Assembly: GCA_964442775.1 (NCBI GenBank) | Contig: CAYUAO010000002.1 | Coordinates: forward strand, 573-64,572 | DNA length: 64,000 bases | Reading direction: 5' to 3' | DNA from: an uncultured Halothiobacillus sp. | GTDB lineage: Bacteria > Pseudomonadota > Gammaproteobacteria > Halothiobacillales > Halothiobacillaceae | Shown: positions 6,754 to 53,615 of the stretch, one piece after another | How positions within the stretch are numbered: position 1 is the stretch's first letter | Layout: every line of letters starts with the position of its first letter | Translations under genes and position numbers: made by a program | The notes under the pieces: generated by a model | Database searches by the model: none | The model's input: only the letters and a program-made list of their open reading frames with translations | What the model was told of the DNA's origin: nothing

Positions 6754-8514
6754 TCAGCGCTTTTTCGGCGGCAACAGGTCCGTGATGGTCCCTTCGGCCA
6801 TCTCGGCGGCGAAGCCGAGGGTTTCCGACAGGGTGGGGTGCGGGTGGATGGTCAGGCCGATGTCCGCCATGTCCGCCCCCATCTCGATGGCGAGCATCGC
6901 CTCGGCGATCAGCTCGCCGGCGTTCGGCCCGACGATGCCGGCGCCCAGCAGGCGATGGGTCTTCTTGCAGAACAGCGCCTTGGTCATGCCTTCATCCCGG
7001 CCGAGGCTCAGCGAACGGCCCGAGGCGGCCCAGGGGAAGGCCCCTTTCTCGTACTCGACGCCCTCGGCCTTGAGCTCCTCCTCGGTCTTGCCGGCCCAGG
7101 CGACCTCGGGATCGGTGTAGGCGACACTCGGGATGCCCATCGGCGTGAAGGCCGACGGCAGGCCGCAGATGACCTCGGCGGCGACCTTGCCCTCGTGCAC
7201 TGCCTTGTGGGCCAGCATGGGTTGGCCGACCACGTCGCCGATGGCGTGGATGTGCTCGACATTGGTGCGCATGCGCTCGTCGGCGGCGATAAAGCCACGC
7301 TCGTCGACCGACACGCCGGCCTTCTCGGCATCGATTTTCTTGCCGTTGGGCGCGCGACCGACCGCGACCAGAATGCGATCGAAAACAGCGGTTTCGGGCG
7401 TTTTCTTGCCCTCGAAGGTCACATGCAGACCGTCCTTCTTCGCCTCGACGTCGGTCACCTTCGCGCCGAGGAAGATGTCCTTGTAGCGTTTCTTGAGGAT
7501 CTTCAGCAGCGGGCGGGTGAGATCCTTGTCGGCACCCGGGATGATGGTGTCGGCCAGCTCGACGATGGAAATCTCGGCACCGAGCGAATCGTAGACCTGG
7601 GCCATTTCCAGGCCGATGATGCCGCCGCCGATCACCAGCATCTTGCCGGGTATTTCCTCGAGCTCGAGCGCGTCGGTGGAATCCATCACCCGCGGATCGT
7701 CGTGCGGGATGAACGGCAGCTTCACCGGCTGGGAGCCCGCGGCGACGATGGCATTGTCGAAACGCACCAGCGTCTCCTTGCCCTCGTCGTCGACCACCTT
7801 GACGTGATGCGGGTCGACGAAGCGGCCATAGCCGCGCACGATCTGGACCTTGCGCTGCTTGGCCAGGGCCTCGAGCCCGCCGGTGAGCTTGCTTATCGTC
7901 TTTTCCTTGAAGCCGCGCAGCTTGTCGAGATCGATCTCGGGCTCGGCGAAGGTGACCCCGTGGTCGCTCATCGAACGGGTCTCGTTGAGGACCTCGGAGA
8001 CGTGCAGCAGCGCCTTGGAGGGAATGCAGCCGACGTTCAGACAGACGCCGCCGATAACGGGAAAGCGTTCGATCAGCACCACCTTCTTGCCGAGATCCGC
8101 GGCGCGGAAGGCGGCGGTGTAGCCGCCCGGGCCGGAGCCGAGCACGCAGACCTCGCACTCCACGTCGGCCTTCTCGTCGGTGGCGGCTGCCGCCGGAGCG
8201 GGAGAGGGCGACTCGTTCGTCGATTCCGAGGATGACTCGGCCGACGCCTCGGCGGTTTCACCCTCGCCACTGCCGGCGGCGGGCTCGTATTTGGCGATGG
8301 GTTTTCCCGTGCTGACCTTGTCGCCCACGCCGACCAGCATCTCGGTGATCTTGCCGGCGGCCGGGGCCGGGACCTCCATGGTCGCCTTGTCGGTCTCGAG
8401 CGTGATCAGCGAGTCCTCGGCCTCGATGGTGTCGCCGGCCTCGACCAGCACCTCGATGATCTCGACTTCGTCAAAGTTGCCGATGTCGGGCAGGTTGATG
8501 GTTTCGATGGTCAT
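6754..8514 (-). CDS. lpdA: Dihydrolipoyl dehydrogenase (E3) with an N-terminal lipoyl domain (586 aa)
   Basis: N-terminal lipoyl domain ([20 protein letters not shown]), an acidic/Ala-Pro linker, an FAD-binding GSGPGGY motif, the redox-active [13 protein letters not shown], and a C-terminal HPHPTLSE dimerisation motif. Confidence 0.95.
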
Positions 8515-8524
8515 CCGGCGCTCC

Positions 8525-42456: not shown

Positions 42457-42533
42457 GGCTATGTAGCTCAGCTGGTTAGAGCACGGCACTCATAATGCCG
42501 GAGTCGGTGGTTCGAATCCACCCATAGCCACCA
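42457..42533 (+). tRNA. tRNA-Met, elongator type (anticodon CAU), with encoded CCA
   Basis: GGCTATGTAGCTCAGCTGGTTAGAGCACGGCACTCATAATGCCGGAGTCGGTGGTTCGAATCCACCCATAGCCACCA closely resembles E. coli elongator tRNA-Met. A lysidine-modified tRNA-Ile2 cannot be excluded from the sequence alone. Confidence 0.9.
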
Positions 42534-42549
42534 CAAAAAATCTGAAAAC

Positions 42550-42587
42550 AGCGACTTGCGGGCTTACTGCCCGGGTCGCTTTTTTTG
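42550..42587 (+). terminator. Rho-independent terminator after tRNA-Met
   Basis: Compound hairpin with outer stem AGCGAC/GTCGCT and inner stem CGGGC/GCCCG, followed by a T7 run. Confidence 0.8.
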
Positions 42588-42646
42588 TGCGCGGAATCAT
42601 TGTGGTGGGGTCTTGCTCCTACCCCGGTGACTGGACAGGTGTCTGC

Positions 42647-43312
42647 ATGACGGGATTCGGCAATCTGCACTGGGTCGAACTGATCGGTCACCTCGGCTAC
42701 GTGCTCACCCTTGCGGCATATCTGGTCAGCGACATGATTCGCCTGCGGGTTCTGGTAGCGCTCGCGTCGGCCGTGATGCTGTTCTACTTCGCCTTTGCCA
42801 CCGGTAACGTGTCATGGACTCCGTTGATCTGGATGGCGATATTCCTCGCCGTGAACCTGGTATGGGTGGTGGTACTCCTGCGCCAGCAACGCGCCATCCG
42901 CTTCACCGAGGAAGAGCGCGAACTGCACGACACGCTGTTCCGAGAGCTGAGTGCCCTGGAGTTCCTCAAGCTGCTGCGTGCCGGTCGCTGGGAAAGCGTG
43001 TCGACGGGCACGGTACTCACCCGCGAGGGCGAAACGGTCGAGGACCTCGTGCTGCTGGTGGAGGGAACCGCGGAGGTGCAGCGGAACCGGCGCGAACCGG
43101 TCCAGGTGCGTTCCGGGGCGTTGATCGGCGAGATGAGTTTCATCGAACACCGCCCTGCCACGGCGACAGTCAGCACCACCCTGCCCTCGCGACTGCTGGT
43201 ATGGAACCAGGCCCGGTTGAACGACCTGTTCCGGCGCAACCCCTCCATGCGTGCCCCGGTGATGTCCGTCATCGGACAGGACCTCAGTCGTAAACTGGCC
43301 GTGCACTCGTGA
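42647..43312 (+). CDS. Membrane protein with about 3 N-terminal TM helices and a C-terminal cyclic-nucleotide-binding (CAP-family) domain, 221 aa
   Basis: TM segments LIGHLGYVLTLAAYLV, VLVALASAVMLFYFAF and LIWMAIFLAVNLVWVVVLL, then a cNMP-binding beta-roll with the phosphate-binding-cassette-like GALIGEMSFIEHRPATATV. I chose ATG 42647 over the track GTG at 42587, which overlaps the terminator. Confidence 0.75.
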   Translation: MTGFGNLHWVELIGHLGYVLTLAAYLVSDMIRLRVLVALASAVMLFYFAFATGNVSWTPLIWMAIFLAVNLVWVVVLLRQQRAIRFTEEERELHDTLFRELSALEFLKLLRAGRWESVSTGTVLTREGETVEDLVLLVEGTAEVQRNRREPVQVRSGALIGEMSFIEHRPATATVSTTLPSRLLVWNQARLNDLFRRNPSMRAPVMSVIGQDLSRKLAVHS

Positions 43313-43883
43313 AATGCGCGGCGCGGTCGCGTGCCGCCCTCGGTCGGACAGACTGCACCCGTGGCCAACCATGGGCCGCCTCACGCTTGCGCCTCGGATC
43401 GGCCAGTCGAAGCACGGTGATCTCGAAATCCATGAGCCGTGGCGATAGTTGGCGGCGGCAAGATCGCGCATCCGCGATTGCCGCGCTCTGGCCCGCCTAC
43501 GGTTCAACCGCACGGCAATGAATCCACGCTAAAGATTCCTCGCCGACTCGTCCCCCGGGCACACCGGGACGTTCGGCGGATTCGCGAGCACATCGCCATC
43601 CCTGTGCTGGCCCGGGATTCGAGCCGACCCTCGATAGGGCGGCCGATTGCCGATTCCCGCCGGAACAATGCGGAACATTTCGCGCTTTTCCCTCCAATCC
43701 AAGGGGGACTGCTGGCAGAATCCGCCGGAATGCGCATCGGCCCTGCCGAAACGACGTCTCGGCATCGGCAAGACCGCGTTCCGCGTCCGGATTGGTGATT
43801 CGGCGCGAAATTGCCTTTAAAATGCCGGGGTCTTTCGAGGCGACGAGCGCCTCGACCAAGGCCACCAACTGGAACGGATCACC

Positions 43884-44249
43884 ATGGAAAAGCACATTCT
43901 TCTGGTCGAAGACAACGAGATGAATCGGGACATGCTCTCCCGGCGGCTGAAACGCAAGGGATTCACCGTGTCAGTTGCCATGGACGGGCGTCGTGGCGTG
44001 GACATGGCGCACGAGATCAAGCCCGACATCATCCTGATGGACATGAGCCTGCCGGTGCTCGATGGCTGGGACGCAACCCGGGAGATCAAGGCCGACGACT
44101 CGATCTCGTCCATTCCGGTAATCGCGCTGACCGCCCATGCAATGGCGAGCGACCGCGACAGGGCGCTGGATGCCGGTTGTGACGACTTCGACACCAAACC
44201 AGTCGAACTCCCGCGCCTGCTGGAGAAGATCGAAAGGATTCTTGGTTGA
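43884..44249 (+). CDS. Stand-alone CheY-like response regulator receiver (121 aa)
   Basis: ILLVEDNEMNRDML...DIILMDMSLPVLDGW...PVIALTAHA...DDFDTKP carries all the receiver signature residues. Confidence 0.92.
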   Translation: MEKHILLVEDNEMNRDMLSRRLKRKGFTVSVAMDGRRGVDMAHEIKPDIILMDMSLPVLDGWDATREIKADDSISSIPVIALTAHAMASDRDRALDAGCDDFDTKPVELPRLLEKIERILG

Positions 44250-44299
44250 GCAACGCTCCCTCGACGTTTCCCCTCCCACGCATCGAAAAGGACCAACCG

Positions 44300-45529
44300 A
44301 TGCCGATCGTTCAACGGACTTTCCCACTTTCCTGCACTGCCATCGCCCTGGCCCTGCTGTTCTCCTTCACTCTGTCTCCTGCCGTCACGCAGGCCGCCGA
44401 ACCCGGAGCCGACGAGGACGCGTCGACGGATGTCGACGCACTCCGGGAACGCCTGAAAAAGCGTCGCCAGGCGGACGAGTCGGACAACCGCTTCAAGCCG
44501 CGCTTCTCCGGGTTCATAAACGCCGGGGTCAGCCACGACCCCGATGGGACCGGTTATTCCGCCCAGGATGGCGACACGGATTTCGAGCTCAACAGCCTCG
44601 CGGGGCTGCAGGGCCGGTTCGAACTCGGCGAGTCGACCAATGTGACCGTCCAGGGCGTGGCTCGCGGCGCCGACGAGTGGAAACCCGAGATCGAGTGGGC
44701 AATGCTCTCGCACGGCTTCGATAACGGCCTGACAGTGCGTGCCGGCCGTCTGCGGGTGCCGCTGTTCATGTACTCCGATTACCTGGAAGTGGGTTATGCG
44801 CAACCCTGGGCGCGACCACCACAGGAAGTCTACGGAATGGTGCCCATCTCCAGTTTCAACGGCGTCGACGCGATCCACGAGCACTCCCTGGCAGGCGGTA
44901 CCCTGAGCACACAGGCGTTCGCCGGGGCCACGGAAGACGAGTACCGATTCACTTCGGATACCGAAGTGGATTTCGAGCTCGACAACCTTTTCGGTGGCTC
45001 GATCGCCTGGACCGACGACAGGCTCACCCTTCGCGTTAACGCCGCCCGGGCGGACGTCCGCATGCAGGAACCCGAGTTCCGCCCGGCGCTGGATGTCGAC
45101 GACTCGGGTTGGTTCGCCGGCGTCGGGGCCCGCTGGGAGACCGGCGACTGGTTCGTTGTTGGCGAACTCACGCGCATCGAGGTCGACTCGCCGCAATACC
45201 CGGACACGGATGCCGGATACCTGTCCGCCGGTCACCAACTGGGACCGACGGTGCCTTACCTGACCCTTGCCGCGGTCGAGTCCACGGACGATGCGACGCG
45301 CGCCGGTACCCCCATGCAGGCGTTCGACATGCAACGACACGCCGTCACGCTCGGCGCGCGCTGGGACGTGATGCCGAAAGTGGCGGTCAAGGCCGAGATC
45401 ACGCGCGCCGACGGCCTGTCGGGCACCTGGGGAGGGCTCGGGAGCAACCTCGATTCGATGATGGAGCGTGGTCGGTTCGTGCATGACGACGCCACGATCG
45501 GCACGTTGTCCGTCCACGCGGTCTTCTGA
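44300..45529 (+). CDS. Predicted outer-membrane beta-barrel (porin-like) protein, 409 aa
   Basis: Signal peptide MPIVQRTFPLSCTAIALALLFSFTLSPAVTQA-AEP, alternating amphipathic beta-strand patterns, and a C-terminal aromatic residue (LSVHAVF). ATG 44300 is preferred to the track TTG at 44246. Confidence 0.65.
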   Translation: MPIVQRTFPLSCTAIALALLFSFTLSPAVTQAAEPGADEDASTDVDALRERLKKRRQADESDNRFKPRFSGFINAGVSHDPDGTGYSAQDGDTDFELNSLAGLQGRFELGESTNVTVQGVARGADEWKPEIEWAMLSHGFDNGLTVRAGRLRVPLFMYSDYLEVGYAQPWARPPQEVYGMVPISSFNGVDAIHEHSLAGGTLSTQAFAGATEDEYRFTSDTEVDFELDNLFGGSIAWTDDRLTLRVNAARADVRMQEPEFRPALDVDDSGWFAGVGARWETGDWFVVGELTRIEVDSPQYPDTDAGYLSAGHQLGPTVPYLTLAAVESTDDATRAGTPMQAFDMQRHAVTLGARWDVMPKVAVKAEITRADGLSGTWGGLGSNLDSMMERGRFVHDDATIGTLSVHAVF

Positions 45530-45599
45530 TCACGCCGAGCCGGACGAGCACGGACAAAGCGACGCCGGCACAGCCACGCCGGCGACAGTGGAGGTAAGG

Positions 45600-46118
45600 A
45601 TGACAGTTTCAATGGCCACCGGGCTTATGCTCGCGCGGATCCGTCGATACCCGCCGCACCACAGGCGGCAGTCTCTCCGGTCATGCCGCCAAGCCGGGAA
45701 CCGTCTGTTTCCCTTGGCAGTTCTGCTCGTCGTAATGGCGGCCAGTCCCCTGGCGGCACGGGCCGAGCCCTTCGTGGTGATCACTCACCCGGACGCCGCG
45801 CAGGAACTGGACAAGGACGATATCCGCGAGATCTACCTCGGGCGACGCGAGGACTGGGTGCCCCTGGAATTGCTCGAGGGCAATCCCCTGCGTGAACGAT
45901 TCCACGAGGAGATCACCGGGCGCACGAACGCCCAGCTGCGGTCGCACTGGTCGCGCCAGGTCTTCACGGGGCGCGGCTACCCACCCGAGGAGATCGAGAA
46001 GGAATCCGAGGTCATGCTCTTGGTCAGCGAAGAGCCCGCGGCCATCGGTTATGTGAGCGAGGATGCCGTATCCGGTGACGTGAAGGTCGTCTACCGGGAT
46101 GATGAATCGAAGGATTGA
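45600..46118 (+). CDS. Small secreted periplasmic-binding-protein-like (PstS/PBP_like_2-type half domain) protein, 172 aa
   Basis: A hydrophobic signal-like segment [22 protein letters not shown], then [29 protein letters not shown]...[13 protein letters not shown]...[13 protein letters not shown], which resembles phosphate-type PBP fragments. ATG 45600 is preceded by GGAGGTAAGG. The exact start is uncertain. Confidence 0.55.
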
Positions 46119-48498
46119 TGTCAACGCGATGACAGGGACCGTCCAGAAAGTCACCATGCCCCATCTGCCCGAGCGGCTACCGATCCGCTGCTCTATCCGC
46201 CGACGCGTGAACGTCGCCATCACGCTCGCCCTCGGGGCGCTGCTGGCGTTTCTCGTCGTGGTCTACTGGGTCACCACCAGCAATGAACGATTGCTGACCT
46301 CGATCGAAACCGCGCAGTTTCCGGCCCTCGACCACCTCGAGCGCAACCAGGTGCGCCTCAAGGGAATACGTGATTCCTTCGAACTGGGTGTCACGACGGG
46401 CGAGTCCGCCCTGCTTGGCCAGGCGTCTCAAAACTATGAACGCTTGCAGGACGACTTCGACGCCCTGGAGACCAATCCCAGCGTCGACCACGAGGGACTG
46501 GACCGGACTCGTGGGGAGATAGAAGCCTACTTCCAGGCCGGTGAATCGGTAGCGCGGCGCATTATCGAGGAAGGTGTCTGGGACGGCGTCAGCGACGATG
46601 TCAAGGCGATGAACGAGGCCTACTCCCGGGCGAGCGCTTCGCTCGAGGGAATGGGAGAAGCGAGCCGCAAGCGTTTCAACGACAGTCTCGAAACAGCCGG
46701 GGACAACGCCGAGACCGGCCTTTTCTGGGGGATGGTTCTCGGTTTGCTGACACTCGCCGCGTCGGTGCTGGTCGCCCTGACGGTACGCTTCGTGGTCGAT
46801 CGCCTCGTCGGGGCGAGCCGTTTCCTTGACAAGCTCTCGGATGATCTCGATCTCGACGAGCGCATGCCCGAGAAGGGCAGCGACGAAATGACCAGGCTGT
46901 CTCATTCGTTCAACCAGTTACTCGACCACCTTCAACGCTCCCGTGAGGAACTCACGGCCGCCAAGGAACAGGCCGAAGAGGCCAACCGGACCAAATCGGC
47001 CTTCCTTGCCAACATGAGCCACGAGTTGCGCACTCCGCTCAACGCGGTGATCGGCTACTCGGAAATGCTCTCCGAGGACGCCGAGGATGCCGGGGCGGAA
47101 GACCTGATCCCGGACCTGAACAAGATCCAGGGCGCGGGGCGCCATCTGCTCGCGCTGATCAACGACATCCTCGACATATCCAAGATCGAGGCGGGCAAGA
47201 TGGACGTGCACCTCGAGGCCATCCCGCTCGACCAGGAAGTCGAGCAAGTGATCCACACCGCTGAGGCACTGATGGATCGCAACGACAATCGCCTGGTGAC
47301 ACGGATCGAACCACTGGGCGAGTGGCGGACGGATGCGACCAAGCTGCGGCAGATCCTGTTCAACCTGCTCTCCAATGCTGCGAAGTTCACCGAGAACGGC
47401 GAGGTGCATCTCCAGGCGCGACGCAGGCACGAAGCGGGTGGAGAGTGGCTTGAGTTCGTGGTGAGCGACAGCGGCATCGGCATGACCGAGGAACAGCTGA
47501 GCCGACTGTTCCAGGCCTTCAGCCAGGCGGACTCCTCTACCACGCGCAAGTACGGCGGCACCGGGCTGGGCCTGGCGATCTCGCAGAGTTTCGCCCGCAT
47601 GCTGGGGGGAGACATCACCGTCGAGAGCGAACCGGGTGAAGGCACCACCTTCCGCCTGTGCATCCCACCCGACGACCAGTTGACTTCCGACGAGCAGATC
47701 GCGCCCGCCATGCCGGCTGCGAGCGGATCGGCACAGGCAGGCGGGCACACCACCGGCGAGAACGCGACGATCCTGGTGGTTGACGACGACCCCACCGTGC
47801 GCGACATCCTCACCCGTCAGTTGGCCCGTGCCGGCTACGAGGTATTGCCGGCTTCCAACGGCGAGGATGCCCTGGAGATCGCACGACGTTTCCGTCCGGC
47901 CGCCATCACGCTGGATGTCATGATCCCCGGTCGTGACGGCTGGAGCGTGCTCGGCGACCTCAAGGCCGATCCCGAGACGCGCGACATCCCCGTGGTGATG
48001 ATCACCATGGTCGACGACCGCGAACGCGCCTACACGCTCGGAGCGGCGGAGTACCTGAACAAGCCCATCGACCGCGGAGCACTCCTGGAGATCATGGGCC
48101 GCCTCGGACAGGGCCCTGCCCGGGTTCTTCTGGTCGAGGACGATCCGGACACGCGGGACATGACCCGCCGCTCCCTCGAAAGGCACGGGCACCAGGTGAT
48201 CACGGCTCGAGACGGCTTGGAGGGACTCTCCTCGCTGGAGGAGGCCTCGAGACTTCCGGACGTGATCCTCCTCGACCTGATGATGCCCAACATGGACGGT
48301 TTCACCTTTCTCGATCGACTTGAGGACACCAGGTGGCGGGACATTCCCGTCGTGATCGTCACGGCCAAGGATCTCGACGAAGAGGAACGCTCCTACCTGA
48401 ATCACCGCGTAAACCAGACGATCGCCAAGGAAGGCAACGTCGATCTCCACGCCGCTCTCGAGCAGATCATCGCGCCGGCCCGGAGACAGGGTCCATGA
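46099..48498 (+). CDS. Hybrid sensor histidine kinase: TM, periplasmic helical sensor, TM, HAMP, HisKA, HATPase_c, REC, REC (799 aa)
   Basis: TMs [18 protein letters not shown] and [22 protein letters not shown]-box [19 protein letters not shown]-box [12 protein letters not shown]-boxes DSGIGM and GGTGLGLAI. Two receivers (ILVVDDDP...[12 protein letters not shown]; VLLVEDDP...[12 protein letters not shown]). Later in-frame ATGs at 46129 and 46156 are alternative starts. Confidence 0.92.
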
Positions 48499-48632
48499 GC
48501 ACGGACCAGCAGGCGAACATGGTATCCACGCTCCATTTCTCGTCCCCCCTCGCGATGGTGGCCTCGGTCGACCCAAAGCCGACCGGCCGGGGACACCGGG
48601 GACAACCGGAGCTCAACGGGAGCGTGACATGA
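48495..48632 (+). CDS. Candidate 45-codon small ORF bridging the kinase and cyclase genes
   Basis: It is below the 60-aa track cutoff. It reads [45 protein letters not shown]. Its ATG overlaps the kinase stop (ATGA at 48495-48498) and its stop overlaps the cyclase ATG (ATGA at 48629-48632). 38 of 45 third positions are G or C (counted by hand). Confidence 0.4.
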
Positions 48633-50263
48633 CCGACAGATGGACCAGCGAGGCCGCGCTCGCGAGTGTGCGCCACGATCTTCTCGCCCCGGCCAACGCG
48701 ATTGCCGGGTACGCCGACCTGCTGATCGAGGATGCGCCCACGTCGATGGACGCCGATCTCCTGGACGATCTCCAGCGGATCCAGGATGCATCGCGCACGC
48801 TGCTTTCGCTTGCCGACGAGCTGCTGTCGGCCGACCGTATCACGGCGATGGCCGACCAGGGAGGGGATCAGGCTTCCATCGAGGCACGCGTTCGGCATGA
48901 CCTGCGCAATCCGCTCTCGGCGATCCGCGGATACGGTGAAATGATGCTCGAGGAACTCGACGACTCGAACGACGAGTCACTTGGCGAGCTGTCGGAAGAT
49001 CTGCGCCACCTGCTCGAGTCCACCGACGCCCTGCTCGACCAGCTCGAGGCGATCGTGGACTTTTCCGGCGACGGTGGCGCCGGACGGGACGAGGACCTCG
49101 ACCTGCAGGCCATGGCCGCCGAACTCGCAGAGAGCATTCGGCCGAGCGATCGCTCGGCGCACGACCAGGTGGAACCCGGACGCATCCTGCTCGTGGAAGA
49201 CAACGAGTCCAATCGGGCCCTGCTGGCCCGGCGGCTGGAAAAGGCCGGACACACGGTGGTGCAGGCTTCCGACGGCCAGGAAGCGCTAGACGCGCTGGCC
49301 AGGGAGGAAGGTTTCGACCTGGTGTTGCTCGACCTGATGATGCCCGGCATCAACGGCTTCGAAATTCTGATGCGCATCAAGCGCAACCCGTCGCTACGGT
49401 ACCTGCCGGTGATCATGATCTCGGCCCTGCGTGAAATGGGCAGCATCGTGCGCTGCATCGAGGCAGGCGCGGACGACTACCTGCCCAAGCCGGTGAACAA
49501 CACCCTGCTGTTCGCCCGGCTGGACGCCTCGCTGGCGCGCAAGCAGGCACAGGACCGTGAGCGCCGCTACCTGGAGCGCATCGAGGAGGAAAAGGCCAAG
49601 AGCGAGTCGCTGTTGCGCAACATCCTGCCGGAGACCATCGTCGAACGCCTGCACCGGGGCGAGACAGTCACCGCCGACCAGTTCGACGAGGTCACGGTGG
49701 TGTTCACCGACATCGTCGGCTTCACCCGGCTGTCCTCGCGTACCGCCCCCCGGGACATGGTCTCCCGGCTGAACCGTCTGTTCTCGGCCTTTGACCGGCT
49801 CACCCATGAACACGGCGTGGAGAAGATCAAGACCATCGGCGATGCCTACATGGCCGCCGCGGGCCTCCCGGAACCGTGCGAGGACCATGCCCGGCGGGCC
49901 GCGCGACTGGCGCTGGGCATGCAGGAAGCGGTCGCACGCATCAATCGCGATCTGCCGGAGCCGTTCGCCATTCGCGTGGGCATGCACAGCGGCCCGGTGG
50001 CGGCCGGCATACTGGGCACTCACAAGTTCGTCTACGACATCTGGGGCGACACCGTGAACCTCGCGTCGCGACTGGAAAGCTCCGCCCAGCCGAGCACCAT
50101 CTGCCTGTCGGCGGAGACACGGGACTGTCTTGCCGGGCGATTCCGTACCGAATCGCTGGGCGAGCGCGAGCTCAAGGGCAAGGGACGGGTGGCGGTACAT
50201 CGCCTGATCGCCGAGGAAATGAACGGCGCCGACGTGGCGCCGGCCAACGAGGACACACCATGA
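48629..50263 (+). CDS. Two tandem DHp/HisKA-like phosphoacceptor domains (no ATPase domain), REC, and a class III adenylate cyclase catalytic domain (544 aa)
   Basis: H-boxes VRHDLLAPANAIAGYADLL and VRHDLRNPLSAIRGYGEMM. Receiver ILLVEDNESNRALL...LLDLMMPGINGF...DDYLPKP. Cyclase VTVVFTDIVGFTRLS, EKIKTIGDAYMAAAG and FVYDIWGDTVNLASRLES, i.e. the Lys/Asp substrate pair that specifies ATP. Confidence 0.88.
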   Translation: MTDRWTSEAALASVRHDLLAPANAIAGYADLLIEDAPTSMDADLLDDLQRIQDASRTLLSLADELLSADRITAMADQGGDQASIEARVRHDLRNPLSAIRGYGEMMLEELDDSNDESLGELSEDLRHLLESTDALLDQLEAIVDFSGDGGAGRDEDLDLQAMAAELAESIRPSDRSAHDQVEPGRILLVEDNESNRALLARRLEKAGHTVVQASDGQEALDALAREEGFDLVLLDLMMPGINGFEILMRIKRNPSLRYLPVIMISALREMGSIVRCIEAGADDYLPKPVNNTLLFARLDASLARKQAQDRERRYLERIEEEKAKSESLLRNILPETIVERLHRGETVTADQFDEVTVVFTDIVGFTRLSSRTAPRDMVSRLNRLFSAFDRLTHEHGVEKIKTIGDAYMAAAGLPEPCEDHARRAARLALGMQEAVARINRDLPEPFAIRVGMHSGPVAAGILGTHKFVYDIWGDTVNLASRLESSAQPSTICLSAETRDCLAGRFRTESLGERELKGKGRVAVHRLIAEEMNGADVAPANEDTP

Positions 50264-51198
50264 CCGACGACCGAGACGACGCCAAGGACATCACCATGAT
50301 GCGTGACTGGACCCTGATCCAGCACGGCATCGATCGGCTCTCACAGGGGATCTGCGTCTTCAACGGGGATTTTCGCCTCGCACTGTTCAACCGCAATTTC
50401 CTCGACCTGCTCGACTACCCGGAATCCCTGATCCGCATTGGCCTGCCCTTCGAGGAGCTGCTGCGCTTCAACGCCGAACGGGGCGAGTTCGGACCGGGCG
50501 ACACCGAGATGCTCGTCCGCGAACGACTCGATCTGGTACGCAATGCCACCGAACCGCACTGCTTCGAACGCACCCGCCCCAACGGCACGGTACTCGAAAT
50601 CAGCGGTGGCCCCCTGCCCAACGGCGGCTTCGTCTCGATCTACACCGATGTGACCGAGCGAAAGACCCTCGAGGATCGCCTGCGATTCATGGCCACACGC
50701 GACAATCTCACCGGCCTGTACAACCGCGGGCACTTCTTCGAACTGGCCGAACAGGAGCTCGAACGCGCGCGACGCCGGGATCATTCCGTGGCGGTCGTCA
50801 TGCTCGACGTCGACCACTTCAAGCAGTTCAACGATCGCTACGGCCACGCCACCGGCGATGCCGTTCTACGCCTGCTGGCCGACACCCTGAAGGAGAGCCT
50901 GCGCGGTCACGACATCCCCGCCCGCTTCGGCGGTGAGGAGTTCATCGCCCTGCTCCCGGAGACCGAGCCGCCGGAAGCGCGCGACGTAGCCGAACGCCTC
51001 CGTACCCATATCGAGGCGACCCCGCTGACAACCGAGGATCACGGCGTGCTGCGGATCACGGCGAGCCTCGGGGTGAGTTGCGCCAGGGGCGGGGCGATCC
51101 CCTCCCTCGACACCTTGCTCGAACAGGCCGATCAGGGCCTGTATCGCTCCAAGGAGGCCGGGCGCAACCAGGTAAGCTGCATCGACGACCCGGCCTAA
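50260..51198 (+). CDS. PAS-GGDEF diguanylate cyclase with an intact active site and I-site (312 aa)
   Basis: An N-terminal PAS-like domain (GICVFNGDFRLALFNRNFLDLLDYP...GGFVSIYTDVTERK), then RDNLTGLYNRGHF and RGHDIPARFGGEEFIALL (RxxD five residues before GGEEF). ATG 50260 overlaps the cyclase stop (ATGA). Confidence 0.9.
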   Translation: MTDDRDDAKDITMMRDWTLIQHGIDRLSQGICVFNGDFRLALFNRNFLDLLDYPESLIRIGLPFEELLRFNAERGEFGPGDTEMLVRERLDLVRNATEPHCFERTRPNGTVLEISGGPLPNGGFVSIYTDVTERKTLEDRLRFMATRDNLTGLYNRGHFFELAEQELERARRRDHSVAVVMLDVDHFKQFNDRYGHATGDAVLRLLADTLKESLRGHDIPARFGGEEFIALLPETEPPEARDVAERLRTHIEATPLTTEDHGVLRITASLGVSCARGGAIPSLDTLLEQADQGLYRSKEAGRNQVSCIDDPA

Positions 51199-51238
51199 GC
51201 ATGCCCAGGGCAAGAAATCCGTAGAGGAAACGGTCGAC

Positions 51239-51997
51239 ATGAAGATTCGGATACTCGGCGCCGGCGGCAGCATGGCGAACGGACGGCTCAGCACCTCGAT
51301 CCTCATCGACGACACGCTGTTGATCGACGCCGGAACGGGGCTGGCCAGCCTGAACGTCGACGAGATGCTCGGCATCCGGGAGGTGTTTCTCACCCACAGC
51401 CATATCGACCACGTCGCCGCCCTGTCCGCGCTGGGCGACATGCGTCTGGGCCGGGAGCGCCCCCTGCGGCTGCACGCCCACCCAGAGACCCTCGCCGCGC
51501 TCGAGCGACACTTCTTCAACAACGTCCTCTGGCCCGATTTCACCGCCATACCCAGCCGGCAGGAACCGGTCTTTCAACCGGCACCGATGAGACCCGGCCA
51601 GGTAGTGGTGGCCGAAGGCGTGACCCTGACCGCCTTCCGCGCCGAACACCCGGTGCCGGCGCTGGGCTTTCATGTCCAGGATGGCGCCACCTCGATGGTG
51701 TTCTCCGGTGACACCGGTCCCGGTGGCGAGATGGTCGACGTGCTCCACTCGCACCCGGTCCCCGACCTGTTGATCGTCGAGTGCGCGTTCCCCGATCGCA
51801 TGGCCGAGATCGCCCGTCTGGCCGGACATTACACCCCGAGCCCGCTGGCCTTCGATCTCGCCGCCATTCCCCGGCCGCGGCACACCGCGATCACCCACCT
51901 CAAGCCGGGACTCGAGGACGAGATCCGACGCGAGTGCCGCGAACACGACCTCGACCATGTCACCTTTCTCGATGACGGAGAGATTTTCCGGCTCTGA
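51239..51997 (+). CDS. MBL-fold hydrolase resembling class II 3',5'-cyclic-nucleotide phosphodiesterases (252 aa)
   Basis: MKIRILGAGGS...LLIDAGTG...FLTHSHIDHVAAL (HxHxDH), later FSGDTGP and a C-terminal H in ITHLKP. The size and motif order are those I associate with the CpdP/PDE1-type family. A generic MBL hydrolase cannot be excluded. Confidence 0.55.
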   Translation: MKIRILGAGGSMANGRLSTSILIDDTLLIDAGTGLASLNVDEMLGIREVFLTHSHIDHVAALSALGDMRLGRERPLRLHAHPETLAALERHFFNNVLWPDFTAIPSRQEPVFQPAPMRPGQVVVAEGVTLTAFRAEHPVPALGFHVQDGATSMVFSGDTGPGGEMVDVLHSHPVPDLLIVECAFPDRMAEIARLAGHYTPSPLAFDLAAIPRPRHTAITHLKPGLEDEIRRECREHDLDHVTFLDDGEIFRL

Positions 51998-52016
51998 GCG
52001 ACCTCGATTCGTCGTT

Positions 52017-53615
52017 TCACCGTTCCTGCCGCAGGTTTGGCCGCCGATGCCCACGGTTTGACCGGAGCACGGCCAGCGCGAGCAGCACCAGCATCGTGAT
52101 GGCCACCGGCCACTCCCCGAGGCGTGCCAGAGGGGTTGCACCACCGCGCGGAGCGACGTTCTCCGTCAACGTGCCCCGTTCGCCCGTGCCCAGGGAGGAA
52201 ACGACGCGCCCCCGGTAGTCGACGAAGGCCGAAATCCCGGTGTTCGTCGAACGGATAAGCGGTCGGCGATACTCGATGGCCCGCGCCCGGGCCATCTGCA
52301 GATGCTGGTGGGGCGAGAAGCTCTCGCCGAACCACGAATCGTTGGAAACCGTTACCAGCAGGTCGGCGGCGTGGATCGTTCCCCGGATATCGCGGGAGAA
52401 ATCGGCCTCGAAACAGATCGACGCGCCCAGCGTGACCTCCCCGACACGCAGGGGCGACTGGACCGCCGTGCCGGGACTGAGGTCCGACATCGGCACCTCG
52501 AACAGCCACGGCATGCGCTCGATCAGGCCCCGCAACGGAAAGTACTCGCCGAATGGCACCAGGTGGCGCTTGCGATACTCGCCCGCCGCAGCGGGGAACC
52601 CCAGCAGGGTGTTGTAGTAGCGGCCGTCCGAATCGCGCGAGAAGGTGCCGGCCAGCAGGGTGAGATCGCGTTGCCGCGAGAGGGTGTCGAGTTCCTCGCG
52701 CAGTTCGGGGAGATCATCGATCACCCGCGGGACAGCCGTCTCGGGCCACACGACCAGGTCGAGATCGGGAAGCGAATCGGTCAGGTCGCGATAGGTATCG
52801 AGGGTGCGCTGGAAGTAATCCGGATCGAATTTCTGCATCTGCGCGATATTGCCCTGCACGATGCCGACCGACAGCGGCGGCCCGGCGACCCGGGACCACT
52901 CGATCGCGCGCAGCGGCAGCGAGGCGAGAAAAATCGCCGCCATAACGGCGACAGGCGCCAGCCAGCGCCTCCAGTCCGGCCCGTGTATCCCCACCTGCGC
53001 GGCCAGGTGCCAGAGGCCCACGGCCAGCGCCAGGAGGATCGCCGTCACCCCGTACTCGCCGAGTATCGGCAACCAGCCGACCAGCGGGCCATCCACCTGG
53101 CTGATGCCGAGATTGAGCCAGGGAAATCCGCCGAAAAGCCAGCCGCGCAGCGCCTCGATCAGCACCCAGCTCGCCAGGAACGCCGCGGCGCGGAGCGGCC
53201 AGCGGGAATCCGGCGTGACGCGCACGGCCAGCCAGGCCGCGACCGCCGGGTAGAAGGCGAGCACCATCACGAACGCCGCGGTCACCAGCGCCGCCAGCGG
53301 CGCGACGATGCCGCCGAAAAGGGTGAAGCTCTCGTAGACCCAGCTCACCCCGAGGCCGAACTGGCCCAGCCCGAACCACCAGCCCAGACGGAACGCCCGG
53401 GCCGGGCTGCAACGGCGAATCAGCGCGAACAGGATGGCAGGCGCGAGGACCGCCGCCGGCCAGAACGCGAACGGGGCAAAGGCCAGAACCAGCGTGGCGC
53501 CCGCGACCAGGGCGAGCCCGCTGCCGAGCCAGCCGTTCAGGCGATCCGGGATCGCCTGGCGGTCGCCGGGGCGATCAGCGCCGGCCCGATCAGCCCTCCT
53601 CGGCCGGCGACCCAT
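52017..53615 (-). CDS. lnt: Apolipoprotein N-acyltransferase (532 aa)
   Basis: A polytopic N-terminal half plus a C-terminal nitrilase-like domain (VVWPETAVP, SICFEADFS, NDSWFG). It follows corC as in enterobacteria. The ATG at 53615 overlaps the corC 3' end by 26 nt, so the true start may be internal. Confidence 0.92.
   Translation of the reverse strand: MGRRPRRADRAGADRPGDRQAIPDRLNGWLGSGLALVAGATLVLAFAPFAFWPAAVLAPAILFALIRRCSPARAFRLGWWFGLGQFGLGVSWVYESFTLFGGIVAPLAALVTAAFVMVLAFYPAVAAWLAVRVTPDSRWPLRAAAFLASWVLIEALRGWLFGGFPWLNLGISQVDGPLVGWLPILGEYGVTAILLALAVGLWHLAAQVGIHGPDWRRWLAPVAVMAAIFLASLPLRAIEWSRVAGPPLSVGIVQGNIAQMQKFDPDYFQRTLDTYRDLTDSLPDLDLVVWPETAVPRVIDDLPELREELDTLSRQRDLTLLAGTFSRDSDGRYYNTLLGFPAAAGEYRKRHLVPFGEYFPLRGLIERMPWLFEVPMSDLSPGTAVQSPLRVGEVTLGASICFEADFSRDIRGTIHAADLLVTVSNDSWFGESFSPHQHLQMARARAIEYRRPLIRSTNTGISAFVDYRGRVVSSLGTGERGTLTENVAPRGGATPLARLGEWPVAITMLVLLALAVLRSNRGHRRPNLRQER

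Follow-up and report, generated by a model that had tools for sequence, protein, structure and literature searches.

A composite gene islet beside tRNA-Met pairs a candidate phosphorelay to an adenylate cyclase with a putative trans-envelope input

We analysed a 64,000-nucleotide stretch of DNA (hereafter the window) from a contig of an uncultured Halothiobacillus sp., which carries a plus-strand cluster of signalling genes between a tRNA-Met gene and lnt. An earlier note, made from the sequence alone, had described eight open reading frames (ORFs) here and linked an envelope sensor module and a multistep phosphorelay to enzymes of both cyclic AMP (cAMP) and cyclic di-GMP (c-di-GMP) metabolism. 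All eight ORFs lie on the plus strand where the note had placed them, and seven are real genes; the exception is a 45-codon ORF. The inventory had missed a further gene of the same DNA block, which encodes a Popeye-like membrane protein with a cyclic-nucleotide-monophosphate (cNMP)-binding domain (42647-43312). Overall, three layers make up the cluster: a core phosphorelay trio (histidine kinase, single receiver and receiver-controlled cyclase), an input pair made up of an outer-membrane protein and half a periplasmic binding protein, and passenger genes. The features of the locus are as follows.

42457-42533, plus strand: tRNA-Met (CAT), the left boundary of the block (ARAGORN and Rfam)
42647-43312, plus strand: Popeye-like membrane protein, about three transmembrane helices and a cNMP-binding domain (Pfam, transmembrane scan)
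43661-43721, plus strand: conserved upstream element, with CGGAACA-N3-CGGAACA at 43661-43677 and TGGCAGAAT at 43713-43721 (three-way comparison)
43884-44249, plus strand: DivK-like single-domain response regulator (SDRR), acceptor Asp53 (Pfam Response_reg, 4.5e-27)
44300-45529, plus strand: porin-like outer-membrane beta-barrel protein (OMP), partner of the half-PBP (Pfam Porin_4 at threshold)
45600-46118, plus strand: secreted single-lobe PstS-type periplasmic binding protein (half-PBP; AlphaFold2 model, Foldseek)
46099-48498, plus strand: membrane hybrid histidine kinase, HAMP-HisKA-HATPase_c-REC-REC (Pfam, transmembrane scan)
48495-48632, plus strand: 45-codon ORF between kinase and cyclase, unlikely to be a conserved gene
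48629-50263, plus strand: response-regulator adenylate cyclase, HisKA-HisKA-REC-class IIIa cyclase (Pfam Guanylate_cyc, 9.5e-59)
50260-51198, plus strand: PAS_7-GGDEF diguanylate cyclase (DGC; Pfam, NCBIfam), with an ATGA overlap with the cyclase stop
51239-51997, plus strand: metallo-beta-lactamase (MBL)-fold hydrolase with a metal motif like that of class II phosphodiesterases, a putative cyclic-nucleotide phosphodiesterase (Pfam Lactamase_B_2, PDEase_II)

Pfam and NCBIfam scans, profile checks of the kind that the earlier note had proposed, bear out its receiver (REC), kinase, cyclase, GGDEF and MBL calls, and place the OMP exactly at the Porin_4 gathering score.

An accessory block at tRNA-Met

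The host is a Guyparkeria-like bacterium with a sulfur-oxidising lifestyle. The YchF protein encoded in the window groups with Guyparkeria spp. in a 90%-identity cluster, and three sister Guyparkeria contigs (L173-L175) carry ychF and tRNA-Met followed directly by lnt. The window is syntenic with these contigs at the DNA level up to precisely the tRNA-Met 3' end at 42533, and again from 52159 onwards, within lnt. The intervening 9.6 kb (42534-52158) is therefore an indel block, accessory and absent from the sister Guyparkeria genomes, in which the Popeye-like gene comes first and the seven real genes of the cluster follow. The signs of a tRNA-associated genomic island are mixed: the block has its boundary at the tRNA 3' end and is absent from sister genomes, but its GC content is like that of the surroundings, with no compositional deviation, and a search at the block for an integrase and for an att-type repeat of the tRNA end found neither.

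Two other contigs, L172 and the more distantly related L081, keep the gene order single receiver-OMP-half-PBP-kinase-adenylate cyclase(-DGC), with proteins 60-96% identical to those of the window. Since the gene order is kept while the intergenic DNA has diverged among all three sequences, the comparison argues that the cluster is not a chance grouping. L081 starts with the 3' part of the same tRNA and runs straight into the receiver gene, without a cNMP-binding gene, which points to an old insertion site at tRNA-Met and to the cNMP-binding gene as a later gain or loss. Both contigs end before the position of the MBL gene, and the right end of the cluster is not visible in these relatives.

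The ATGA overlaps that had been reported between neighbouring ORFs are real in the DNA. The 45-codon ORF nevertheless does not hold its place as a gene of the cluster. It lies in a kinase-cyclase spacer of 130 nt in the window, 111 nt in L172 and about 40 nt in L081, the DNA of which cannot be aligned, and it has no homologue in either relative; the spacer ORF of L172 encodes an unrelated peptide, even though the proteins on either side of that spacer are 85-96% identical to those of the window. With a coding-like third-position GC content (GC3) of 0.83, the ORF may specify a lineage-specific peptide.

Kinase, single receiver and cyclase as a candidate relay

The kinase comprises a transmembrane segment, a periplasmic helical domain of about 145 residues, a second transmembrane segment, a HAMP domain, a HisKA domain with His308, an ATPase domain and two receivers, REC1 (Asp606) and REC2 (Asp726). 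The transmembrane segments fall at about residues 35-62 and 206-239, and matches to HisKA (1.8e-19) and HATPase_c (2.3e-31) identify the protein by sequence as an autophosphorylating kinase. His308 is present in 27 of 27 kinase orthologues, and in both kinase receivers the acceptor set of Asp, Thr/Ser and Lys is conserved in 24-27 of the 27. The reported 20-nt overlap with the half-PBP gene holds for a kinase start at 46099; the kinase may instead start at M11 (46129), as in L172, in which case the overlap becomes a 10-nt gap.

The single receiver has its acceptor residues too, and the earlier count of four receiver domains stands, with all four keeping theirs. Three of them carry the Asp/Thr(Ser)/Lys set and are candidates for the intermediate step of a relay (SDRR Asp53, REC1 Asp606 and REC2 Asp726); a Pfam scan found no HPt domain in the kinase or anywhere in the block. 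At the DNA level, the first 58 nt of three receiver domains (43895-43952 in the single receiver, 48123-48180 in kinase REC2 and 49183-49240 in the cyclase REC) are 62-79% identical, a likeness consistent with a common origin of the single receiver and the cyclase receiver.

The cyclase protein begins with a pseudo-DHp hairpin (H16) and a canonical DHp domain (His90), followed by a receiver (Asp235), a coiled coil and a class IIIa cyclase domain. Within the coiled coil, between receiver and cyclase, lies a cyclase-transducer element, LLRNILPETIVERL, at residue 328. Residues H90, D235, D361, K401, D405, D470, N477 and R481 are invariant across 18 aligned cyclases, and the catalytic domain has the two metal-binding Asp, the substrate Lys/Asp pair, the transition-state Asn/Arg and the preceding transducer element of class IIIa. 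Its Lys401/Asp470 pair specifies ATP, and in the Protein Data Bank (PDB) the domain comes closest to the membrane adenylate cyclases of mammals and to structures of bacterial adenylate cyclases, 4p2x and 7yz9 among them.

The earlier note had counted three His-containing DHp domains in the cluster, which overstates the case. H16 is His in the window and in L172 and Gln in 15 of the 18 aligned cyclases, the L081 protein among them; of the two H-box histidines only His90 is invariant (18/18). The DHp domain that bears it is a canonical HisKA hairpin with an H-D-x-x-N motif and matches the DHp domains of EnvZ and HK853. Pfam finds no HATPase_c domain in the protein, which thus has no kinase of its own as CyaC does; because its polypeptide holds no ATPase, the cyclase must be phosphorylated in trans. 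By eye, the pseudo-DHp hairpin (48629-48850) resembles the kinase's own DHp (46990-47200), with the helix-2 pattern D-L-x-[RK]-I-Q-x-A-x-R-x-L-L-x-L common to both, and in relatives with a PP2C output the His appears to be carried by a hairpin of this pseudo-DHp type.

We surveyed the 80 best loci from a scan of a collection holding one genome per species for 185,579 species, and called the trio linked where all three members, the third being any (DHp-)REC-output protein, were encoded within 6 kb. The trio is linked in 34 of the 80 loci, in five gene orders and nearly always on one strand, and these loci come from Alpha- and Gammaproteobacteria, Armatimonadota, Acidobacteriota, Cyanobacteria, Verrucomicrobiota and Chloroflexota. 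Across the 34, the kinases are 43-56% identical to the catalytic core of the window kinase, and the single receivers are 56-76% identical to the window SDRR, compared with about 35% for paralogous receivers. The DHp-REC-cyclase architecture is itself very common: the top 120 database matches, at about 50% identity, all have it.

What follows the DHp-REC unit in the trio varies between a cyclase, a GAF-PAS-cyclase, a PP2C phosphatase, a kinase core and a Ser/Thr kinase, and an equivalent of His90 is present in the PP2C, kinase-core and Ser/Thr-kinase variants as well. In four Halieaceae loci (L020, L023, L025 and L027) the kinase ends after its ATPase domain, while the single receiver and a His-containing DHp-REC-cyclase are kept. 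Moreover, one protein, P0043, is a natural fusion of the order receiver-DHp-REC-cyclase; its N-terminal receiver is 71% identical to the window SDRR, against 37% for its internal receiver. The linkage in 34 loci and the existence of this fusion support the view that kinase, single receiver and DHp-REC-cyclase form a functional unit.

On balance, we favour reading the cluster as a composite signalling islet built around a multistep His-Asp-His-Asp phosphorelay with a cAMP output, and we infer that transfer along His308-Asp-His90-Asp235 is the most economical course for it. An envelope signal would be perceived by the porin-like OMP and the single-lobe PstS-like protein and passed to the periplasmic helical domain and HAMP domain of the kinase, which would autophosphorylate on His308. 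Phosphate would then move to a receiver Asp. We consider the single receiver the most likely shuttle because of the fusion protein P0043 and the plain-kinase variants of Halieaceae; the kinase's two receivers would act as intermediates or sinks. From the shuttle, phosphate would pass to His90 of the cyclase DHp, in the role of Spo0B, ChpT, PhyK or PhyT, and on to Asp235, and the phosphorylated receiver would switch the dimeric cyclase through the coiled coil and transducer element to make cAMP. The DGC, answering to a PAS input of its own, would contribute c-di-GMP synthesis and the MBL hydrolase would provide signal termination, both outside phospho-control, with the Popeye-like protein as a candidate cAMP receptor.

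Two observations count against this relay. Both kinase receivers are intact, so the intermediate Asp has several candidates; and eight or nine of the trio loci have no DHp (REC-cyclase only), always with a hybrid kinase, so the His relay cannot be essential to the trio. Because these DHp-less variants show that the relay is not obligatory, a branched two-component system without a His relay, similar to DivJ/PleC-DivK-PleD, stays a serious rival, although we think it unlikely to be the true arrangement. In such a scheme the kinase would phosphorylate the single receiver and the cyclase receiver directly, and the cyclase DHp would be a dimerisation scaffold, would dock the phosphorylated single receiver much as DivL docks DivK~P, or would act as a dedicated phosphatase.

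Several features fit the branched scheme. In the DHp-less loci a hybrid kinase still accompanies the single receiver and the REC-cyclase; PleD is the top NCBIfam match for the single receiver and for the cyclase receiver alike; class III cyclases function only as dimers, and a DHp would dimerise them; H-D-x-x-N is also the phosphatase motif of HisKA kinases; and the likeness, by eye, of the pseudo-DHp hairpin to the kinase's DHp points the same way. However, docking of the DivL type needs no His, whereas His90 is invariant in all 18 cyclases and recurs in the PP2C, kinase-core and Ser/Thr-kinase variants. Loci with a non-hybrid kinase keep both the single receiver and the DHp, and P0043 has its receiver joined straight to the N-terminal side of the DHp, the order of REC-HPt modules.

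Transfer from a receiver through a DHp protein to a second receiver has been demonstrated for MrrA-PhyK-PhyR in Caulobacter (PMC5964349) and for the Pak-driven SdrG-PhyT-PhyR pathway in Sphingomonas melonis (PMC5898713). The Pak-SdrG-PhyT-PhyR and HK-MrrA-PhyK-PhyR systems follow the same logic as that proposed here, from kinase to single receiver to DHp phosphotransferase to terminal receiver, without sequence orthology to the window proteins. PhyK and PhyT are separate HWE/HisKA2 proteins and the output is partner switching by PhyR, whereas the window DHp is of the HisKA type, has no ATPase, is fused to the terminal regulator and has a class III cyclase as its output.

In the Spo0 (KinA-Spo0F-Spo0B-Spo0A) relay of Bacillus and in CckA-ChpT-CtrA, likewise His-Asp-His-Asp relays, the second His sits on a DHp-like four-helix bundle without kinase activity. 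The Halieaceae variants, with plain kinase, single receiver and DHp-REC-cyclase, are formally identical to the Spo0F/Spo0B logic; the window differs in that its second-His domain is fused to the final regulator, its kinase has two receivers of its own, and its output is enzymatic and not DNA binding. Cyanobacterial CyaC (Kasahara and Ohmori 1999, J Biol Chem 274:15167, as cited in PMC1183210) is a class III adenylate cyclase reportedly activated through phosphorylation of its adjacent receiver after His autophosphorylation, but CyaC has a complete kinase (DHp and ATPase) in the same polypeptide. DivJ/PleC-DivK-PleD has a layout in common with the window, one kinase serving both a single receiver of the DivK type and a nucleotide cyclase under receiver control, but PleD has a GGDEF output, with no DHp and no OMP/PBP input, in place of the class III cyclase.

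Every domain of the cluster is thus ordinary, and phosphorelays to second-messenger enzymes are already known (CyaC, PleD). What nevertheless appears to be undescribed is the conservation of the trio as a cassette whose terminal regulator carries a fused phosphotransferase DHp, and likewise the OMP/half-PBP pair as a portable input. A full-text literature search found no description of either, although most subscription journals lie outside its reach and this is no proof of absence; within the reach of that search, the earlier statement that the cluster matches no named system stands. If the relay is real, thousands of database entries named "adenylate/guanylate cyclase domain-containing protein" or "response regulator" would represent a phosphorelay class with a built-in phosphotransferase, and cAMP signalling in many non-model phyla would gain a testable upstream pathway.

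The outer-membrane and half-PBP pair

The OMP scores 27.0 bits against Porin_4, the very value of the gathering score. It starts with a signal peptide, ends in Phe and is porin-like by sequence, and its orthologues in other loci are called Porin_4. The half-PBP itself has no Pfam match. A word-indexed homologue search returned only three relatives, and we used an exhaustive HMMER search for the family, which comprises 4950 representative clusters of mostly stand-alone proteins of 130-145 residues; 13 of 50 members match Pfam PBP_like_2. An AlphaFold model built from 50 sequences (pLDDT 94) aligns by Foldseek with one lobe of PstS-type proteins, with TM-scores of 0.65-0.68 normalised to the query and 0.33-0.37 normalised to the target. 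The model covers about 120 of some 250 target residues, a single lobe in place of two, and on this model the protein is half a binding protein with a mature length of about 115 residues. The earlier PBP-like call was hence right as to fold, supported by both the model and the PBP_like_2 matches, but only one lobe of such a protein is present. An N-terminal extension conserved with L172 supports the start at 45600.

The gene-neighbourhood search that the earlier note had proposed around the cyclase recovered the trio, as described above, but not the OMP and half-PBP genes, which are absent from the other trio loci and kept in the two close relatives L172 and L081. The pair has a wider life of its own. 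In eight other genomic contexts, including Shewanella, Saccharophagus, Thalassolituus, Bacterioplanoides, Pseudoalteromonas and others, an OMP orthologue (25-32% identity, E-values from 1e-24 to 1e-38) lies about 10 nt 5' of the half-PBP gene. An OMP orthologue stands directly 5' of every half-PBP gene that we examined, and the pair recurs in marine Gammaproteobacteria. Its neighbour is a HAMP chemoreceptor in four of the eight contexts and a two-transmembrane receptor-type class III cyclase in two, with none obvious in the remaining two. Between the sensor region of the window kinase and that of the Shewanella chemoreceptor there is a faint similarity (E 6e-6).

Half-PBP domains also occur within larger proteins. 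P0125 (744 residues), a membrane sensor of the BlaR1 type (Peptidase_M56), ends in a pair of half-PBP domains at the C-terminus, and tandem proteins made of two half-PBP copies exist as well (further multi-domain members are P0140, P0151, P0163 and P0233); these double domains hint that two lobes may pair up. Elsewhere, the OMP/half-PBP pair is tandemly duplicated in L089 (3823-7181) and L091 (3763-8555), and L084 has an extra half-PBP gene between chemoreceptor and OMP. In the Pseudoalteromonas contig L176, a gene for an MBL protein of the Anti-Pycsar_Apyc1 type (Pfam; 7583-8521) lies 2 kb from the OMP/half-PBP/chemoreceptor group, probably by coincidence.

Because orthologous pairs adjoin chemoreceptors, receptor cyclases or this kinase, and because a BlaR1-type transducer carries half-PBP domains, the OMP and half-PBP are plausibly a sensory input, in agreement with the earlier suggestion that an outer-membrane protein and a binding protein feed the kinase. 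Two findings sit less well with a sensor: two of the eight contexts have no adjoining transducer, and the half-PBP has no PstS-type Ser-Gly-Thr anion-binding motif, the family consensus at that place reading D-L-x-E-x-x-x-x-R by eye.

The pair could instead be a device for nutrient or ion uptake, co-regulated with the signalling genes or beside them by chance, which we think quite improbable. A porin together with a PstS-like fold does suggest anion uptake, the family carries the source annotation "phosphate ABC transporter substrate-binding protein", and the two contexts without a transducer would fit. But no ABC transporter genes, neither permease nor ATPase, lie beside any pair examined, and a single lobe cannot close on a ligand as a transport binding protein does. 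The BlaR1-type sensor protease with its half-PBP domains, and the six of eight contexts with an adjoining chemoreceptor or receptor cyclase, likewise speak for signalling; chemoreceptors do not regulate transcription, and their adjacency to the pair therefore points to input.

Receptors that depend on substrate-binding proteins (SBPs) have been reviewed with PstS-CtpL, LuxP-LuxQ and TorT-TorS as examples, and that review mentions no outer-membrane partner and no single-lobe form (PMC8050422, 2021). The likeness lies in a binding protein of the periplasm, of the PBP_like_2 kind for CtpL, that activates a transmembrane receptor with a helical periplasmic domain. The SBPs of these three systems are two-lobed and usually shared with a transporter, whereas the half-PBP is a single lobe, always has a dedicated porin-like OMP as its partner and is accompanied by no transporter.

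YfiBNR and the NsrA/CHASE2 cyclases of Sinorhizobium meliloti (PMC7529298) are likewise built in three tiers, from an outer-membrane protein through a periplasmic or extracytoplasmic element to a second-messenger enzyme of the inner membrane, but neither is homologous to the window system. YfiB is an OmpA/Pal-like lipoprotein, YfiR is no PBP lobe, and YfiN (PAS-HAMP-GGDEF) is itself the diguanylate cyclase; in our cluster only the GGDEF domain has a counterpart there, the OMP being porin-like and the periplasmic protein a PBP lobe. NsrA acts with CHASE2 receptor cyclases (PMC7529298).

We tentatively entertain a broader possibility, somewhat short of an even chance, that two widespread undescribed modules meet at this locus: a trans-envelope OMP/half-PBP sensor and a pan-bacterial phosphorelay cassette with swappable outputs. 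Chemoreceptors, receptor cyclases, histidine kinases and BlaR1-type proteases would be interchangeable partners of the sensor, and the ATPase-less DHp of the cassette would possibly fold with the pseudo-DHp hairpin into an intramolecular four-helix bundle. If the pair is a sensor, it would give Gram-negative bacteria a new way to link what happens at the outer membrane with chemotaxis, cAMP and two-component signalling, and about 5000 family clusters now labelled as phosphate-transport proteins would need re-annotation. The islet would then be a convenient natural construct, with both modules wired together and with easily measured read-outs in cAMP and c-di-GMP.

Passenger genes and the upstream region

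The DGC has a GGDEF match of 1.2e-47, a GGEEF motif at residue 224 and an I-site, RGHD (RxxD intact), at residue 215, five residues upstream, and is a diguanylate cyclase by sequence. Against the NCBIfam model for DgcN/YfiN its GGDEF domain reaches 128.7 bits, versus a cut-off of 325. In L081 the start of a DGC gene, 82% identical, follows the cyclase. A DGC in this position is confined to close relatives; the GGDEF neighbours in two trio loci, L018 and L019, are unrelated to it.

The MBL gene is the last of the block and is convergent with lnt. Its product has the motif HSHIDH at residue 53 and scores 35.6 bits against PDEase_II (PF02112; cut-off 23.7), a match that spans only residues 45-108, or 64 residues of a 340-position profile. 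It aligns end to end with the NCBIfam model cyc_nuc_deg_phdiest, at 34.6 bits versus a cut-off of 400, and RNase Z models score as well or better. In the PDB it matches yeast PDE1 (4ojv, 8e-8).

The earlier note had joined all eight ORFs in one circuit, with the relay governing cAMP synthesis, c-di-GMP synthesis and cyclic-nucleotide degradation. The gene arrangement is in keeping with this: the genes share a strand, the cyclase and DGC genes overlap by ATGA, the gap to the MBL gene is 40 nt, and there is no convincing internal terminator. The DGC and MBL genes are probably co-transcribed. The DGC gene also follows the cyclase in L081, GGDEF genes abut the trio cyclases of L018 and L019, and the entire block is inherited or lost as a unit. 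But neither the DGC nor the MBL protein has a receiver or other phospho-acceptor domain by Pfam, and phospho-control of c-di-GMP synthesis or of cNMP hydrolysis is on this ground unsupported. The two genes are not found in the 34 trio loci, save for the unrelated GGDEF neighbours; no MBL homologue occurs there, and MBL homologues (at most 44% identity) in 80 metagenome loci show no linkage to cyclases. With the 45-codon ORF not conserved either, we judge the full eight-gene circuit very doubtful. The better-supported parts of the locus are widespread modules and not a unique system, and the dual-messenger circuit is the least supported.

Upstream of the operon, the direct repeat CGGAACA-N3-CGGAACA and TGGCAGAAT are the sole stretches conserved among the window, L172 and L081 in the 570-nt region 5' of the receiver gene. 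The repeat is a candidate activator site and TGGCAGAAT a candidate extended -10 element of the operon. We rejected a sigma-54 reading of TGGCAGAAT, as the spacing to a GC element is, by eye, wrong in all three sequences. Rfam scans, of the whole window at the gathering score and of 43250-43950 in E-value mode, found no riboswitch or small RNA 5' of the operon.

The Popeye-like protein matches Pfam cNMP_binding (1.6e-12) and POPDC1-3 (1.4e-11). Its phosphate-binding cassette reads GEMSFIEHRPATATV, with the Arg shifted by eye relative to the canonical P-R-[AS]-A. A homologue (35% identity) is encoded directly 3' of the trio cyclase in the Dongiaceae contig L008 (8204-8836), the only independent support for the Popeye-like protein as a candidate cAMP receptor. 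Its gene's absence between tRNA and receiver gene in L081, and its position 5' of the operon's conserved promoter-like element in the window, weigh against this role.

A cyclase, a transmembrane effector that binds cNMPs and an MBL hydrolase that would degrade them, all beside a tRNA, could also recall a Pycsar-like anti-phage module, and PADLOC gives weak domain-level matches (the cNMP-binding domain to PycTIR effectors at 37-39 bits, the cyclase to PycC at 48 bits), but we dismiss this as extremely improbable: these matches reflect generic domain homology, the cyclase is a receiver-fused class IIIa enzyme with the ATP-specifying Lys401/Asp470 and not a stand-alone pyrimidine cyclase, the transmembrane cNMP-binding gene is missing from L081, Pfam does not place the MBL protein in Anti-Pycsar_Apyc1, and the block showed no integrase or att repeat.

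The PAS_7 domain of the DGC (50260-50680) is 31-42% identical to sensor domains of alphaproteobacterial trio kinases, with 36-42% in three loci (L003, 8076-8432; L008, 3775-4152; L009, 8083-8421). There, these PAS_7-like domains sit directly N-terminal to the kinase catalytic core, where the window kinase has a transmembrane/HAMP sensor instead.

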